Of a stretch of 32,159 bases of DNA, positions 1 through 6,000 are shown one piece after another; within the stretch, counting starts at the first letter, position 1; each line of letters opens with the position of its first letter. The DNA lies in NCBI GenBank assembly GCA_049598495.1, contig JBMYNR010000007.1:1-32159 (forward strand), written 5' to 3'. Position numbers: made by a program. Origin of the DNA: Opitutales bacterium (lineage in GTDB: Bacteria; Verrucomicrobiota; Verrucomicrobiia; Opitutales; Coraliomargaritaceae).

Positions 1-3000
1 CAGCGACTCCGTCGCAGACACCGCACCCGGCCATGTGGCGCCGATAAAAACAAGACAGAGAAAAAGTCTTCCAGACGAAGAAAACGACGAAGAGAACAAC
101 GGACGGAACGGCGGACAGCTGAAGCGCTTCTGTAAACAGTTGCCTGCGATGGGGATTGCGACTCGATCGGGGTAGAGGATTTTCACGCGGCCATGCTAAC
201 ATAGGACCATTAAGTTATCGTTAAGCGGGTGAACCTTTTTGATCCTTCGTGGGTATTTACCGTAATTTTACAATTCCAGGGCCACAGGCCCCCAGCAAGG
301 TCGACGGGCAAGCACTTCCGCCCCTTCGGGGCTCTTCACACGTCGACGCGACTGACATCGCATCGCTACGCACAGCTTCCCTCCCTTCTTAACGGCGGTC
401 GAATTCTACCAATTCGAGAAGCTGAGATACCCTAAACACGACGACGCGTCATCCAGCCACCCAACCAACGGGCGAACACGCAAACAAATGCAGCCATGGA
501 AACCAGCGCAGCCCCAAGGCTCAATGGAATTACCCACAACTGCATAGCAGCCAGAGCCGAAAATAATGCGATGAGGACGATCGCAACTGGAACCCAATCC
601 GTATGTATGCGATGGATGCGTGCGGCGTAGTACACAGGCAAAACGAACGGAGGCATGGCTAGGATCAGAGTAAAGACCAAACAAGCGAGACTGAGTAGCC
701 CGAGCAGGCCGCTGTAGGCCGCAGCCCCCAGAGCATTGATTTCGTAAACGTGAAGGAGTAAGGCGTTTATGGTAAACGCCGCCGCCGATAAAGATCGCAC
801 CGCAATAGGCGACCAAGCCCGCACAGCTGCCAGCGGCTCCGCGTCGAGGCTGTAACCGAAGCGATAGAGTTCGGCACCCAGTTCGGCTAGACTGAATGCG
901 GTTGGCTGCCAGGAAAGCCCCAAACGATTCCCTGAGAGACTGACCTCAGCCTGAGTGATGCCCGGTCGCCGCCGCGTGAGACGTTGAACCAGCCAGACGC
1001 AGCCCATGCAAGACATCCCGGATACGGCGAAGGTGGCCTGTGGCCTCCCGCCAGTCTCCACCCTCTTCTGAGTCGCGTAGAGTGCATTTGCGTCAACGGA
1101 AGGTAGCGCCCGATCCTTGAGCGGTTCAGCCACCCGATCCTGAAAACTGTAAAAATCATCCAGACCCTGGTTATGTATCAGGGAATAAACCTCTCGGCAC
1201 CCAGGACAACAAAACTCCCCCGAAACGGGCTCTCCTAAAATGGTGTTTGAGCAATGACGACAGATGAGACTCATATCTTTTGGGCTCTTCGCAAGAACTC
1301 ACGATCTCGTTCACTCAAGAAAGGCTGGCTAGACACTGCCCTAGGGAGTGCCTGGAAATTCCCTAAAGCAAATCGAAACGTTCAATTCCTTTGCGGACAT
1401 CGGATAAAAACGCAGCCGCCCCCACCCCATTGATCCATCTATGGTCGAAAGTAAGGACCAGCGAGCAGACTTCCATCGTGTCACCTTCCTTCGATTTAGG
1501 ATCGGGCAATTGGTAAGGGGCCCCAATAAAGAGCGTGGCAATTGCGGGCGGAACAACAATTGGGATCGCCGAGCGAACATTGTAGGCGGCCATACTGGAA
1601 ATTGAGATCGAGACCCGGTTCTTGGAATCGGCTTCGCCGTGCCTTGTCCGGCGAAGGGCATCATTAAACACCTCAGGGAAGGCATCCCACTCAAGCTGAT
1701 TGGCACCCTTGACCACAGCCGTCTCCAATGCATCCCCCGGCAGGGCCACCGCGACGCCCAAATCAAAACGTTCGGGGTCATAAACAAGATCATCATCCCC
1801 CACCACCGAGGCAAAGCGCTCGTGCTTCTTGATCGCCTGCGTCACCGCCCAAGCGCACATCGTGGTGGTCGACATGGTGCCGGCAGCGGTCTTTTTGCTC
1901 CGCAAGCGGGCATCACGCACCGCCTCCCAGCGACAAGTGATATCAATGGTCGCCGGGATAATGCCTTGAAGTTGTTTGACCGCCTCTTGAGAAAGCCCTC
2001 CCGTCCGCTTCTGCTCATCGGACGGAAGCGATACCTCCTTTTGCACAAGGGGCACCCCAGATACCGGTCCGTTCATTTTCAGCTCGACCAAATCCTGCCC
2101 CACTTTGACTTCGTCGTCCACAGAGACACACCACTCCCCGAGGATGCCATCTTCATCGCACTCGATTGGAAAGACCGCCTTATCGGTTTCGACCTCGCAG
2201 AGTGCGTCATCGGCTCGGATCGTTTCTCCAGGGTGCTTTAAAATGGAAACCACTCTCGCGACACGGATGCCCTCGCCGAGGATCGGTACCGTAATGGCTT
2301 TACTGTTCGAGGTCGGAGCGGATTCTTCGGGAGCAATCATATCAGAAGCGTCGGAGTTAACAGCGGACGTAGGCACGGTCGTTTTATCAAGAGCGGTCTC
2401 CAATGTCGATGCAAGCAGGCGATCGAGGGCGGATTGGATACGGTCCTTGTCAGGCAAGGCGGCATACTCATAGATCGGATTGAAGCCAACATGGACATCA
2501 TCTTTCGAGACAATGACGGGCGGACTCTTTAAACTCTGAAGGATATCGCGACGGCCACACATTTCCGCCAAGATCATTTGTCCGACACTCGCGCTGATAT
2601 TGTCTTCCTGAACAACCATCAGACGGCCCGTCTTGAGAATGGAGGTCGCAATCGTTTCACGATCCCATGGTTGAATCGAGCGCAAGTCGATCAACTCGAC
2701 GTCAAGTTCCGCTTCCATCTCATCGAGCGTCTCCTCAACCAGCTCCACGCAATTGCCCCAGGTTAAGAGAGTGAGTAGGTTTCCCTCACGAATGATCCGC
2801 GCTTCCCCAAGCGGCACGGCCGCCACGGCCCCGACTTTCTGGTCCGCCCACATCAAATGTTTTGGCAGAAGAATAATCGTCGGATCCTCCCCGTTCAAGG
2901 CCGTCCAGAAAACCCCAGCGGCATCCGCCGGAGTGGAAGGCACCACGACTCGAATACCCGGTATCCTCGCGAAGGAAGCCTCCCCCGCCTGACTATGCCA

Positions 3001-6000
3001 CAAAGCACCACCCGGGAGATAGCCCCCGCAGGGTGCGTATATGACAAGTGGACATTTCCACTGCCCGAAACTGCGCCAGCGCAAGGTTGCCATATTGGAG
3101 ACCAACTGGTTCCAGCCCGGATAAATGAAGTCAACGAACTGAATTTCAAAGCAGGGTCGCTTCCCGTAGGATGCGAGTCCAACGGCCACGCCCATGATGG
3201 TGGATTCTGCCAAGGGCGAATTCACCGCACGGGCTGGGTGCTTCGTCGACAGTCCTTTTGTTAGGTTAAAGACGCCCCCCTTCGGATCGGCGATATCCTC
3301 TCCGAAAAAGACCACATCCTGCATGGAATCAATGGCCGCATGGAAAGTCTTGTTCACCGCGTCAAGCATCCGACAGGAATCGCCCAGTTCAATGGACGGC
3401 ATGGATACAGGCAAACTCTCGGGCCCCGTCAAGTGGAGGCGACATTCCTCCGCCATGGGATCTTGCATCGTGCCCGCGTGCTTATAGGCCTCGCGCACCT
3501 CTTCCCGGATCGTCTCCTCCAATGCCGACGCATCCGATTCAGAGAGAAGCCCCTCATCAATCATCCGCTGCCGGTAAGCGAGAATCGGATCGCGGTCCTG
3601 CATCGCGTTCAGTTCGTCCGCCGCCCGATACATCCGCTGATCATCCGCGCTGGAATGATTTGAGAATCGCTCGACATCACACCAGATAAAGGCGGGCCCC
3701 TGTCCCGAACGAGCCTGATCGACCGCGGCTTGCCCGACTTGATAAACCGCCTCGATATCACTGCCGTCGACACGATGCCACTCTTCCTGATTCAAAACAC
3801 CCAGCGCAATCGGGTTCGTCCGGACGGTCGAAGTGCTGATCGCGATACGGTTATCCTCCACGACAAAGACGATCGGTAGCTTCCGCTCCTTCGCGAAACA
3901 CACCGCCTCGAAAAAATCACCTTGTCGAGCAGAGGCTTCGCCCAAAGAGGCATAAACAACATGACTCTTGCCCTCCAACTGCATCCCCCATGCGGCGCCA
4001 CAGGCCGGTAGAAGATGGGCTCCCACCGGGGATGGATGGCTCCAAATATTGAGCTTACGATCACTGAAGTGTCCCGTTAACTGACGTCCTCCACTTGAAG
4101 ATTCCCGTTTCGCGTAAAATGCGAGCGCCATATCTAGATCCGACAGACCACGCTGCAAACAGAAGGCCCGATCTCGATAGTAGGGGAAGGCATAGTCGTC
4201 TTCCTCTAAAGTCAGTGCGAGCGCGGCCAGCGCCTCGTGCCCCATTCCGGAGATATGGAACCAGCCCTTACCTTGGCGGATCAAACTCTGCTCCCGCAAA
4301 TCTCCCAAGCGACTCCTTAAGATAGAGCGAAGAAGCTCAAGTCGGGTGCAGCGATCTAATGCGGATGTCGGATGGGACGATTGTTTCGACATGAATGTGC
4401 AATAAAAAACAGATCTCAAAAGACCTGTAGCTGGCAGTTTGGGTTACTAAACGCGACGGATATTCGGCTAGCAAGGCTGAATCAAATTCCCCGTGTAGCA
4501 AATTTCAGATTTTCGAGCGACACCAAGTCAAGGGGTCGGCCTCGGCATGGACGTTAAGGTATTGATTTCTTTGCGGCTTAAAGACAGATATCGTTTAAGT
4601 CCATCATGCCCGACCTCGAACTTCCAGGCTTACAGATTTTACTCCTCGGGGAGAGGGAAGCCGAGACAGACCTTGTATTCAAGACCCTGGAACTGACCAG
4701 GCTGCCGATGGAGATACAAGTCGTCAATTGTCTGAAGGAAGGCCTTCGTGCGCTCCGTAAGCAGGCCTTCAACGTAATTTTACTGGATCTAAACCTCTCG
4801 GATAGCCAGGGCATCGAGACGCTTAAATCGATGATGGTCGAAGTAAAGGAGGCGGTCGTCATTGTGCTCGCGGACGTGGACGACGAGGAATGCTCTCTCA
4901 AATCACTGCAGCTAGGCGCGCAAGACTATCTGCTCAAAGATCGCTTGAGCGGTGAGGATCTCCGGCAGTCTATCCGCTACGCGATCGAGCGAAGCAATCT
5001 TCTACGGAAGCCGCAGAACCACATTCAACGGACTGAAGATAAACTCTTCCAGGCAGAGAAATTGAATTCTATCAGCTTACTGGCTGGAGGCATCGCTCAC
5101 GATTTCAACAACATGCTGGCCACCATTTTAGGCAATATCTCGATGATTCGCATTGAAATGGACGAAGGACACAGTTACTCAGAAAAATTGCTTGCCGCTG
5201 AAAAAGCCGCCCTGCAGGCCAAGTCCCTGACCCAGCAGCTTCTCACCTTGTCAAGGGGTGGCACCCCTGTCCTCGAAGTCACCACAGTGGCCGAGGTGGT
5301 CGAGGAGTGTGCACAATTCGTCCTCCGAGGCTCAAACGTGAAATGCGAAGTATCCAAAGACGAAGATCTATGGCCAGTCGATGCCGACAAGGGGCAGATC
5401 AGCCAGGTCGTGAACAACCTCATCATCAATGCAGATCAGGCCATGCCACGTGGAGGAAAGATCGCCATCAGCATCGGCAATTCGAAGATTAGTCCATCGG
5501 AAGTACCCTCTCTGGATTCAGGCAACTATGTGTGCATCGAATTCAAAGACGAGGGGGACGGCATTCCCCCCGAGAATCTCAAGCGAATCTTCGACCCCTA
5601 CTTTACAACGAAGAAAGCCGGCAATGGATTGGGTCTCGCGTCTTCTTATTCCATTGTACAGAGCCACAAGGGTAGCATCATTGCCGAGTCTACTTTGGGC
5701 TCGGGTTCGGTCTTCAAAGTCTATCTTCCGAAGAGCCAAAGATCCGTAGAGCCAGTCAATACCACAGAGATAAAACAGGCAAAGGAGAGCTCCAAAGAGA
5801 CCATTCACCGAGGCAAGGGTCGTATTCTTGTTATGGACGACATGGAGGCCATGATGTTGGTCGCAGGCGAGATCTTGACGGTGCTTGGCTACGAGGTCGA
5901 GTATACGACGAACGGCGAAGAGGCGATCGCTGCTTATCAAAAGGCCAAGGAATCGGGTAACGGCTTCGATGCTGTTGTCTTCGATTTAACCGTCCCCGGC

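Follow-up and report, generated by a model that had tools for sequence, protein, structure and literature searches.

A single-chain E1alpha-E1beta-lipoyl-E2 fusion protein of marine and soil Verrucomicrobiota, a candidate self-armed branched-chain 2-oxoacid dehydrogenase

The window, which is the whole 32,159-nt stretch of the Opitutales contig JBMYNR010000007.1 that was analysed, carries on its minus strand a gene in which the E1 alpha and E1 beta modules, a lipoyl domain and an E2 acyltransferase domain follow one another. The features are as follows.

1363..4392, minus strand, whole gene for the 1009-aa E1alpha-E1beta-lipoyl-E2 fusion (stop codon 1363-1365, ATG 4390-4392)
3463..4311, minus strand, E1 alpha module, E1_dh, residues 28-310 (Pfam 1.7e-55)
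3850..3942, minus strand, ThDP-binding motif GEASARQGD...VEDN, residues 151-181 (sequence motif)
3370..3462, minus strand, alpha-beta linker, residues 311-341 (alignment of 55 relatives)
2437..3369, minus strand, E1 beta module, Transket_pyr 342-513 and Transketolase_C 529-652 (Pfam 3.6e-29 and 2.5e-19)
2299..2436, minus strand, flexible linker joining E1 beta to the lipoyl domain, residues 653-698 (alignment of relatives)
2080..2298, minus strand, lipoyl domain, Biotin_lipoyl, residues 699-771 (Pfam 3e-15)
2011..2079, minus strand, linker joining the lipoyl domain to the E2 core, residues 772-794 (length 20-78 in relatives)
1366..2010, minus strand, E2 acyltransferase catalytic domain, residues about 795-1009 (2-oxoacid_dh 816-1008, 1.9e-25)

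The open reading frame occupies 1363..4419 and opens at a TTG; counted from the ATG at 4392 it gives 1009 residues, and this ATG matches the start position common to the relatives (MSK/MPK...). The survey's finding had placed the gene at 1363-4392 without naming a strand, a substrate or a physiological role; the strand is the minus one. The uninterrupted frame, its five domains with their Pfam figures, and the positions of ETDKA (K738), DHRWING (from D983) and GEASARQGD...VEDN (151-181) are all reproduced. The E1 alpha module holds the ThDP/Mg motif (G151-E152...D180-N181), the GRQxxGH loop (H108) and H246, and the E1 beta module includes E396 and H466, while the lipoyl-lysine K738 is encoded at 2179-2181. 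In the E2 domain, where the 2-oxoacid_dh match covers model positions 32-229 of 232, the key residues are R829, S932, D983-H984-R985, N988, G989 and the C-terminal tail E-R-F-D-L-L.

Among 55 full-length relatives, with identity down to 39%, G151, N181, H108, H246, E396, H466, D983, H984 and G989 are each present in 55/55. Position 152 is Asp in 30 and Glu in 25, and position 932 is Ser in 38 and Thr in 17. K738 occurs in 54 of the 55 (the remaining one has X), N988 likewise in 54, R829 in 53, and an F-x-[LIVM] C-terminal tail in 52. All three modules thus keep their catalytic residues, in support of the survey's picture of an intact all-in-one chain. The median identity to the query is 0.53 for E1 alpha, 0.60 for E1 beta, 0.58 for the lipoyl domain and 0.42 for E2, and 0.09-0.29 for the linkers, whose divergence and variable length are as expected of flexible tethers. 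The alpha-beta linker is 29-33 residues long in the 55 relatives and little conserved, and the linker at residues 653-698 varies from 28 to 72 residues with a median identity of 13%.

The same five Pfam domains occur in all 120 clusters listed (of 4325 matches), which derive from NCBI, JGI, ENA and Logan. Independent metagenome contigs of other studies span every domain junction of the gene without indels, and no indel is reported in any of the four runs, with contigs from four studies. A 3477-nt contig covers 1200-3879 with two differing letters and no gaps, and another contig covers 1757-3876, spanning all three domain junctions. Of the 38 listed strain variants inside the gene, 30 are synonymous (33 more lie beyond those listed). 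The fusion protein is a real, selected enzyme and no artefact. The architecture is already in databases under automatic names, and a literature search retrieved no description of a single-chain E1alpha-E1beta-lipoyl-E2 architecture.

Carriers of the conserved 1009-residue protein are marine and soil Verrucomicrobiota. A single match running from residue 30 or before to at least residue 1004 is found in 66/80 genome loci, and full-length matches occur in 27/201 genomes; the genomes are labelled Opitutales/Puniceicoccales and Chthoniobacterales. The survey's statement that distant Verrucomicrobiota keep this fused frame is borne out only within the source's own class and not for other classes, where the matches (34-37% identity) end near residue 800 and a FabH-like KAS III stands in place of E2 in 4/4 frames fetched; on a quick tree, these KAS III frames form a separate clade of fused E1s (99% SH-aLRT). 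Within the genus, 10 of 19 genomes show the E2 domain in the long frame, two of these frames being incomplete. Two nearly complete genomes (G015, 99%, with 8000 bases outside the search, and G009, 92%) contain the two canonical E2s only, and no full-length match is found in G101 (99% complete). Close kin do not all carry the gene.

Divergence along the chain is greatest in the E2 domain, which shares only 25-28% identity with the other E2s of the genome, and three of five listed strain variants in it are non-synonymous, compared with two of 28 in E1, small numbers in both cases. Two features taken earlier as possible defects prove to be weak worries. The roughly 30 N-terminal model positions thought to be missing are present but divergent, and can be aligned with the genome's canonical E2s, the helix being about five residues shorter. 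The Asn replacing Asp in DHRxxDG is, as given above, near-universal among the relatives, and R829 aligns with a conserved Arg of both canonical E2s (6/6 rows); R829 is tentatively equated with the CoA 3'-phosphate binder of E2p, Arg450/Arg480. Azotobacter E2p, described as active and core-forming, has Asn614 at the same DHRxxDG position, and Arg450 of this enzyme, or Arg480 of the Corynebacterium one, is described as binding the CoA 3'-phosphate (10.1101/2020.07.24.212647). In agreement with the survey, residues 657-850 give no match to E3_binding (PF02817) even at E<=10, although the same search recovers this domain in each canonical E2 of the genome (41.9 and 64.2 bits). The lack of a domain to couple E3 speaks against the reading favoured below, as do the divergence of the E2 domain and the patchy occurrence of the gene.

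As previously listed, the source genome (95.4% complete) also encodes PDH and OGDH and, with scores of 569.5 and 538.8 bits against a cut-off of 408.8, two true E3s at other loci. Only three E2 domains occur in it, those of OGDH, PDH and the fusion protein, and no alpha/beta E1 is found besides PDH and the fusion. Furthermore, the genome gives no match to Acyl-CoA_dh_1, hence no acyl-CoA dehydrogenase, and none to POR_N, hence no ferredoxin-type oxoacid oxidoreductase. It contains LipA, two LipB/LplA-family genes, IlvD, one canonical FabH and two further KAS III homologues. Around the gene, 13/80 loci have an enoyl-CoA hydratase at most three genes away and 7/80 an acyl-CoA carboxyltransferase, mostly in Chthoniobacterales; no conserved neighbouring E3, FabH or ACP gene is found at the loci examined.

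The best solved relatives of the E1 halves are the Thermus BCKDH E1 beta (1e-59) and alpha (1.3e-41), and the GRQxxxH loop, gapped in the PDH alignment, is common to the fusion E1 and BCKDH. BCKDH supplies the iso/anteiso fatty-acid primers in Bacillus and Listeria. Two cultured relatives that carry the gene, rather than the source organism itself, provide lipid evidence: in Coraliomargarita algicola, with a homologue (P0055) 78% identical, the major fatty acids are reported to include iso-C14:0 and anteiso-C15:0 (PMC11165907), and Thalassobacterium sedimentorum SDUM461004, with another (P0059 / L015, 78%), is reported to have 14.9% iso-C14:0 and 6.3% anteiso-C15:0 (PMC11980603). These lipids, and a genome with no further alpha/beta E1-E2 set besides PDH, no acyl-CoA dehydrogenase and no ferredoxin-type oxidoreductase, point to a supply of branched-chain primers. 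The fusion is thus rather likely a self-armed branched-chain 2-oxoacid dehydrogenase of the heterotetrameric-E1 (BCKDH/Gram-positive PDH) type in one chain, and its probable role is to provide branched starter units for the membrane fatty acids of its hosts.

In the proposed mechanism, two chains would associate through their fused alpha-beta E1, giving the usual pair of ThDP sites, and the E1 would decarboxylate a 2-oxoacid, most likely 2-oxoisovalerate, 2-oxo-3-methylvalerate or 2-oxoisocaproate. The acyl group would pass reductively to K738, the chain's own swinging arm, and the C-terminal E2, as a trimer, would transfer it to CoA via His984 with Ser932 of the neighbouring subunit. Either free dihydrolipoyl dehydrogenase could reoxidise the dihydrolipoyl arm without a docking domain, as happens with the glycine-cleavage H protein. 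In the small marine genome, isobutyryl-CoA and 2-methylbutyryl-CoA would be the products with which FabH primes iso/anteiso fatty acids; the catabolism of branched-chain amino acids would probably draw on the enzyme as well in soil Chthoniobacterales.

The substrate is not fixed by sequence, because the fusion E1 also resembles the Geobacillus PDH E1 alpha (7.6e-35) and the best NCBIfam models, all far below their cut-offs, are those of PDH E1 alpha/beta. The same chemistry on pyruvate, 2-oxobutyrate or another acid, in a second PDH-like or propionyl-CoA-forming enzyme with nothing specific to branched chains, is unlikely. The E2 profile is nearer to E. coli E2p (8e-21) than to Listeria BCKDH E2 (4.7e-17), and the aspartate kinase and threonine synthase divergently upstream (29/80 and 27/80 loci) would fit 2-oxobutyrate, but these loci belong to close kin and may reflect mere synteny. 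Against such a substrate stand the complete PDH and OGDH, the BCKDH-like halves and loop of the E1, the iso/anteiso lipids reported for gene-bearing relatives, and the finding that a genus member with a single-contig genome of 5.4 Mb shows no E2 beyond the two canonical ones and the fusion.

Transfer to a thiol other than CoA, such as that of holo-ACP, by which primers would reach lipid synthesis without an acyl-CoA intermediate, is improbable. Fused E1-lipoyl relatives do carry other acceptor domains, namely E2+ACP (P0129), a thioesterase (P0152), PKS/NRPS modules (P0174, P0222) and KAS III (7/25 representatives scanned, and the four other-class genomes), and the E2 domain is highly divergent. 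However, the putative CoA-binding R829 is retained in nearly all relatives, whereas P0129, with its added ACP domain, has Asn at this position; the sole metabolically related recurrent neighbours are acyl-CoA enzymes, and the query clade lies apart from the KAS III clade. More improbable still is an inactive or scaffolding E2 domain, in which case the chain would act as a lipoyl-bearing E1 that gives acyl groups to, or borrows, the PDH/OGDH cores, the converse of OdhA. The low E2 conservation, the Pfam score of 90 bits compared with 254-274 for the canonical E2s, the missing E3-binding domain and the E1 beta-lipoyl precedent of Alphaproteobacteria (NF008854, matched from model position 141) favour it; against it, exactly the catalytic set (D983, H984, S/T932, G989, and the tail) survives some 40% sequence divergence, which is not expected of a dead domain. 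An assembly chimera or a read-through of adjoining E1 and E2 genes is rejected almost with certainty, as the cluster architectures, the genome loci, the four-study contigs and the mainly synonymous variants contradict it, and for it there is one weak joint (1840 to 2258, 417 nt skipped) in a single contig of one run, with a depth of 7.6 versus 66.9 and a side of 29.

Among known systems, the fusion is close to the BCKDH complex whose E1 is heterotetrameric (Thermus thermophilus, Pseudomonas putida, human, Bacillus Bkd). The two share the ThDP alpha/beta E1 (best solved relatives 1um9 A/B), the lipoyl-lysine carrier and a CAT-like E2 that has the DHR histidine; the three chemical steps and the supply of branched acyl-CoA are expected to be the same. 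Unlike that complex, alpha, beta, lipoyl and E2 core lie in one polypeptide that lacks a peripheral-subunit/E3-binding domain, and the C-terminal tail is 2-4 residues shorter than in ordinary E2s. The E1 part is closest (50-54% identity) to fused E1 alpha-beta chains of about 650-680 aa (P0128; Armatimonadota-labelled L043, L066, L073, L075 and L083), which group with the query clade on the quick tree (20 rows, support 100) but stop after Transketolase_C; the loci examined have no adjacent lipoyl-E2 gene. The uncharacterised E1alpha-beta-lipoyl-KAS III fusions of other classes of the phylum, 33-39% identical, share the fused E1 and the lipoyl arm and differ in the acceptor, a FabH-like condensing enzyme instead of an E2 core. 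The Alphaproteobacterial/Zymomonas PDH E1 beta (NF008854, matched over model positions 141-459 only) likewise bears a lipoyl domain covalently, though N-terminal to beta and with alpha and E2 as separate proteins. The actinobacterial OdhA/KGD 'two-in-one' 2-oxoglutarate dehydrogenase, whose E2 domain (8p5s/8p5t) is among the solved relatives of the fusion E2, also joins E1 and E2 catalytic domains on one chain, so that in both a dimeric E1 and a trimeric E2 are to be reconciled in one oligomer, described for OdhA as an 800-kDa hexamer (PMC10415282). OdhA is described there as having E2 before a homodimeric E1o and no lipoyl domain, borrowing those of E2p; the fusion differs, as the survey had noted, in its order E1alpha-E1beta-lipoyl-E2, its alpha/beta-type E1 and its own arm.

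The open reading frame of the fused E1alpha-E1beta-lipoyl-E2 protein spans 1363..4419 on the minus strand and begins with the start codon TTG; the ATG at 4392 gives a chain of 1009 residues and lies at the same start position as in relatives. The chain is divided among five Pfam domains.

Pfam domains of the fused protein
Residues 28-310: E1_dh, 188.5 bits against a cut-off of 22
Residues 342-513: Transket_pyr
Residues 529-652: Transketolase_C
Residues 699-771: Biotin_lipoyl, 56.2 bits
Residues 816-1008: 2-oxoacid_dh, 90.1 bits against a cut-off of 23

The sequence motifs that the survey's finding had placed in this chain were recovered at the same residues. 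NCBIfam models matched the protein only partially, all far under the family cut-offs, and no equivalog threshold was reached. The gene stands alone, with a divergent hybrid histidine kinase upstream and a metal-binding membrane protein downstream, and a scan of positions 1-4800 of the window returned no sigma-70-like sites (2.3 expected) and four terminator-like sites (5.1 expected). The 24 sequencing runs listed include no RNA run that contains the gene, a result that bears on its expression neither way. The gene just downstream (432-1274, minus strand) encodes a 280-aa protein with a cation-transport-ATPase metal-binding domain and an HMA domain. A homologue of this gene comes after the fused dehydrogenase in 6 of 80 loci, with no functional link apparent.

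The fusion in one frame is real, on four grounds. In a collection of 5.8 billion proteins, the five-domain set is common to all 120 clusters listed of 4325 matches, and these clusters stem from NCBI, JGI, ENA and Logan assemblies. In a species-representative genome collection, 66 of the best 80 loci contain a single match running from residue 30 or earlier to residue 1004 or later, while nine of the other 14 are truncated at a contig end and five encode alpha and beta only; among the 66, L035 and L086 have a match length that is not a multiple of three, and the straight translation of L035 contains stops. Furthermore, contigs from four other studies, compared with positions 1200-4700, contain no insertions or deletions: a 3477-nt contig spans 1200-3879 with two letters different and a second contig spans 1757-3876, so that every domain junction is bridged. 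Among the strain variants listed, 30 of 38 in the fused gene are synonymous. Separately, one low-depth contig from one seawater run joins 1840 to 2258 by an in-frame skip of 417 nt, which would take out most of the lipoyl domain and the start of E2. The support for this joint (side 29, depth 7.6 against 66.9) is under the tool's own bar, and it was put down to another organism or a chimera.

Residue retention was counted in an alignment of 55 full-length relatives, 39-91% identical to the fused protein, and all residues checked as catalytic in the E1, lipoyl and E2 parts are retained. The alpha part carries the ThDP/Mg2+ motif G-[DE]-[GA]-x(24-27)-N as G151-E152-A153...D180-N181; G151 and N181 are retained in 55/55, and position 152 is split between D (30) and E (25). 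H108 and H246 (NHSSADD) of the alpha part and E396 (LAEST) and H466 (WHSQ) of the beta part are each present in 55/55. From solved E1s, we take E396 to serve ThDP activation and H466 and H246 to be catalytic. The E1 part fits the ThDP-dependent, heterotetrameric alpha/beta type, whose alpha2beta2 assembly with two active sites would here be a dimer of fused chains. The closest solved structures to the E1 halves are BCKDH E1s (Thermus 1um9 B, 1e-59; A, 1.3e-41), and a GRQxxxH loop common to the fused protein and BCKDH is gapped in the alignment with Geobacillus PDH. PDH E1s are nearly as close to the fused E1 as the BCKDH E1s, so the substrate is not fixed by sequence alone. The substrates that define a BCKDH are 2-oxoisovalerate, 2-oxo-3-methylvalerate and 2-oxoisocaproate.

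The lipoyl domain holds its target lysine in the DKA turn (ETDKA), where K738 is retained in 54/55, the remaining relative having an X. Across the 55 relatives, the domains are conserved and steady in length. The three linkers have a median identity of 0.09-0.29, and the two that flank the lipoyl domain range in length over 28-72 and 20-78 residues. Judged from these alignments, conserved domains joined by variable, poorly conserved linkers are the pattern of a swinging arm.

In the E2 domain, D983, H984 and G989 are retained in 55/55, R985 in 52/55 and N988 in 54/55, and position 932, about 52 residues upstream of the catalytic His, is S in 38 and T in 17. The survey's finding had raised two doubts about this domain, and neither holds. 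The Asn in place of Asp after the catalytic His (DHRxx[DN]G) is the rule of the family, and Azotobacter E2p, an active, core-forming enzyme, has Asn614 at the same place (10.1101/2020.07.24.212647). The supposedly missing N-terminus is present but divergent: the region before the Pfam match aligns with the starts of the E2 domains encoded in the same genome, its helix being about five residues shorter. The domain is unusual all the same: it is 25-28% identical to these own-genome E2s and is the least conserved domain of the fused protein (median 0.42 among the 55 relatives), and of its five listed strain variants three are non-synonymous. Its family-specific tail E-x-F-x-[LIVM], here ERFDLL, is 2-4 residues shorter than canonical and own-genome tails, and the tail Phe is retained in 52/55.

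The canonical E2 layout of lipoyl domain, peripheral-subunit or E3-binding domain (PSBD) and core is not that of the fused protein, according to profile search and alignment. No PSBD (PF02817) was found in residues 657-850, even at E<=10, and the same search was positive in both canonical E2s encoded beside it in the genome, that of OGDH (41.9 bits) and that of PDH (64.2 bits). The dihydrolipoyl arm would be reoxidised by free E3, without docking. R829 aligns with a conserved Arg of canonical E2s, which we take to be the Arg binding the CoA 3'-phosphate. It is retained in 53/55, and the only relative with an added ACP domain has Asn at this position; both observations make CoA the likely acyl acceptor. 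The expected chemistry would be that of any 2-oxoacid dehydrogenase.

Within the phylum, the fused form was surveyed in 201 genomes, all at least 90% complete. A full-length single-frame match occurs in the window's genome, in 16 of the 17 other genomes of its family and in seven genomes from elsewhere in the order or class; in three more genomes the match comes as two pieces in one frame, confirmed by Pfam in one case (L098). The carriers of the fused E2 form thus total 27 of 201. By public record names, they belong to Opitutales/Puniceicoccales and Chthoniobacterales, including Candidatus Udaeobacter, and cultured carriers include Coraliomargarita, Thalassobacterium and Lentimonas. The fused gene is not universal in the genus, as some near-complete genomes show two canonical E2s only (one such genome having been searched in part). 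Copies were also found on contigs binned as Polaribacter (L014, 73% identical) and Planctomycetaceae (L086, 50% identical), and these are probably mis-binned contigs rather than transfers.

The earlier claim that the fused frame is kept in distant Verrucomicrobiota stands for the organism's own order and class; it fails for other classes, where a KAS III (FabH-like condensing) domain takes the place of E2 in all four frames fetched. In these classes, 16 genomes have matches of 33-39% identity that end at residue about 612 to 814, in frames of 1104-1339 aa. The four fetched frames are of 1105-1166 aa, with KAS III after the lipoyl domain.

E1alpha-E1beta-lipoyl-KAS III genes without an E2 core, from other classes of the phylum
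L094, 681-4151, minus strand
L095, 697-4194, minus strand
L096, 143-3457, plus strand
L097, 130-3489, plus strand

The KAS III form also occurs in Anthocerotibacter panamensis (P0151), annotated as 'beta-ketoacyl-ACP synthase 3'. In a 50%-identity representative library, the C-terminal modules on the fused E1-lipoyl unit are E2, E2 with ACP, KAS III, thioesterase, PKS/NRPS modules or nothing.

Representative proteins with other C-terminal modules
P0129, 1227 aa: E1-lipoyl with E2 and an ACP domain
P0152, 1091 aa: E1-lipoyl with thioesterase

Two longer representatives are P0174 (1942 aa), with KAS III-KR-ACP, and P0222 (2895 aa), a PKS/NRPS with E2-ACP-KS-MT-C-A. In these arrangements, the E1-lipoyl unit has the look of a portable module for loading oxoacids onto assembly lines. 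P0215 (1196 aa) contains E1_dh, Transket_pyr and a shortened Transketolase_C together with CHASE2 and an adenylate/guanylate cyclase domain, an unusual combination of ThDP enzyme and signalling output. In the ESM Atlas, the top three clusters have the fused protein's architecture and belong to Verrucomicrobiota. Lower clusters (0.80-0.87) are no more than leads to further natural E1/E2 fusions: a 686-aa Transket_pyr-Transketolase_C-2-oxoacid_dh form in Actinomycetota, a 774-aa E1beta-lipoyl-E2 form in Pseudomonadota, and E1-E2 forms of 1314-1468 aa.

In a quick E1 tree of 44 rows (SH-aLRT support only, midpoint root, careful search not run to completion), the query falls in a clade of eight E2-type rows nested in a fully supported group with alpha-beta-only E1s, and the KAS III forms group apart, in a clade with 99% support into which three further E2-type rows also fall. 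Since E2-type rows are thus found in two clades, it seems that the E2 fusion arose more than once and that, in Verrucomicrobiota, the E2 and KAS III forms are not sister groups. The separate clades give no support to a common origin of the fused protein and the phylum's KAS III fusions. In five Armatimonadota-labelled loci, no lipoyl-E2 gene, as a split ancestor would have, lies beside the alpha-beta-only genes.

The window corresponds to contig 7 of a genome of 1.75 Mb (95.4% complete). This genome encodes a PDH set and an OGDH operon that includes an E3 of its own, and no further E2 or alpha/beta E1 was found in it beyond OGDH, PDH and the fused gene. Two proteins score over the dihydrolipoyl dehydrogenase cut-off and a third under it; LipA, two LipB/LplA-family genes, IlvD, one canonical FabH and two further KAS III homologues are also present. 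Neither the acyl-CoA dehydrogenase family nor the ferredoxin-dependent oxoacid oxidoreductase family has a match in the genome. According to this gene content, the cell can make branched 2-oxoacids, and it lacks any visible means of burning branched acyl-CoA as well as any other visible route from a branched 2-oxoacid to acyl-CoA. A 5.4-Mb single-contig genome of the same genus shows two canonical E2s and the fused one, with no others.

Iso-C14:0 and anteiso-C15:0 fatty acids need isobutyryl and 2-methylbutyryl primers, which BCKDH supplies in Bacillus and Listeria. In the available parts of their descriptions, two cultured relatives whose copy of the gene is 78% identical have iso-C14:0 and anteiso-C15:0 as major fatty acids (PMC11165907, PMC11980603). 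We therefore favour, with moderate confidence, a self-armed branched-chain 2-oxoacid dehydrogenase as the function of the fused protein; its proposed substrate and physiological role are read from gene content and from lipids known in relatives rather than in the window's organism itself. Clustering of the ORFs within three genes of the match in the best 80 loci (L075 and L083 being centred on the wrong ORF) located an enoyl-CoA hydratase at most three genes away in 13/80 and an acyl-CoA carboxyltransferase in 7/80, mostly in Chthoniobacterales-labelled loci, where these neighbours fit a link to branched acyl-CoA catabolism. No recurrent E3, FabH, ACP or aminotransferase neighbour was found within three genes in the 80 loci. 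The other recurrent neighbours are housekeeping or unknown genes (thrC, aspartate kinase, DUF885, Der GTPase, PgsA, G6PD and others).

Elsewhere in the window, positions 9643-16412 hold a small defence or toxin-antitoxin-like islet, in which the ResIII/helicase and PrimPol fragments look truncated.

Genes of the islet, all within 9643-16412
Fic-MerR fusion (PADLOC SoFic / PDC-S04)
DUF4143 AAA ATPase (PDC-S01, 345 bits)
HipA-like kinase with an overlapping small HTH gene
ResIII/helicase fragment of 332 aa, matching the middle of the PbeA / type IV REase models only
PrimPol/AEP-TOTE fragment of 194 aa, matching the C-terminal third of the model only

On contig 33 of the same genome, a KAS III-like gene (L090, 605-2529, minus strand; 435 bits, over the NF006720 cut-off) lies directly upstream of a haloalkane-dehalogenase-like alpha/beta hydrolase, a pairing that we presume to be typical of OleA/OleB olefin-synthesis clusters.

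The fused chain is the enzyme's usual form in Opitutales/Puniceicoccales and Chthoniobacterales, orders that include marine polysaccharide degraders and abundant soil bacteria, and it is a possible source of iso/anteiso lipids where no ordinary bkd operon is present. It raises testable questions: how dimeric and trimeric interfaces are combined within one oligomer, whether substrate is channelled within one chain, and how E3 is engaged without a PSBD. Cultured carriers make such experiments feasible, and the gene would offer engineering a one-gene route to branched acyl-CoA.

2-Oxoacid dehydrogenase complexes are, in the textbook form, separate E1, E2 and E3 components arranged on an E2 core through a docking domain; the CAT-like E2 core is an obligate trimer, and canonical complexes become 24- or 60-mers via a C-terminal 3-10 helix. 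The actinobacterial exceptions, OdhA and the trimeric E2p, drew attention by breaking this rule. A single chain with its own arm and a missing docking domain is not described in the open-access papers and preprints searched: no paper on an E1alpha-beta-lipoyl-E2 chain was found there, and the matches for 'E1-E2 fusion' were ubiquitin-like or viral. Automatic database names for such proteins are 'thiamine pyrophosphate-dependent enzyme' and '2-oxoisovalerate dehydrogenase E1 component'. The nearest precedent is OdhA/KGD, which the available part of its description presents as an E2o-E1o protein without a lipoyl domain, in which E1 dimers and E2 trimers make up an 800-kDa hexamer (PMC10415282). 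Whereas OdhA/KGD combines an N-terminal E2o with a homodimeric E1o and lacks the lipoyl domain, the fused protein runs E1a-E1b-lipoyl-E2, and NF008907 matches its E2 part only, at 42.7 bits against a cut-off of 878. The purely trimeric state of actinobacterial E2p is attributed to a C-terminal insertion that contains a Phe (10.1101/2020.07.24.212647). The short tail of the fused protein has its own conserved Phe, which is no more than a hint that this E2 may also not build a large core. A broader reading, tentative and on the whole rather unlikely, takes all this together. The PSBD-less chain, with two-fold E1 and three-fold E2 interfaces and flexible linkers, would close into a small particle complete in itself, either a cage or a hexamer like that of OdhA. 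Its own arms would channel the substrate, and E3 would act by collision only. Two abundant verrucomicrobial orders would draw all their branched fatty-acid primers from this enzyme, which would belong to a wider unstudied family in which an E1-lipoyl 'loading unit' is plugged into E2, KAS III, thioesterase or PKS/NRPS acceptors. On that reading, nature would have built 2-oxoacid dehydrogenases in three ways: as giant complexes with an E2 core, as the OdhA hexamer of actinobacteria, and as this chain.
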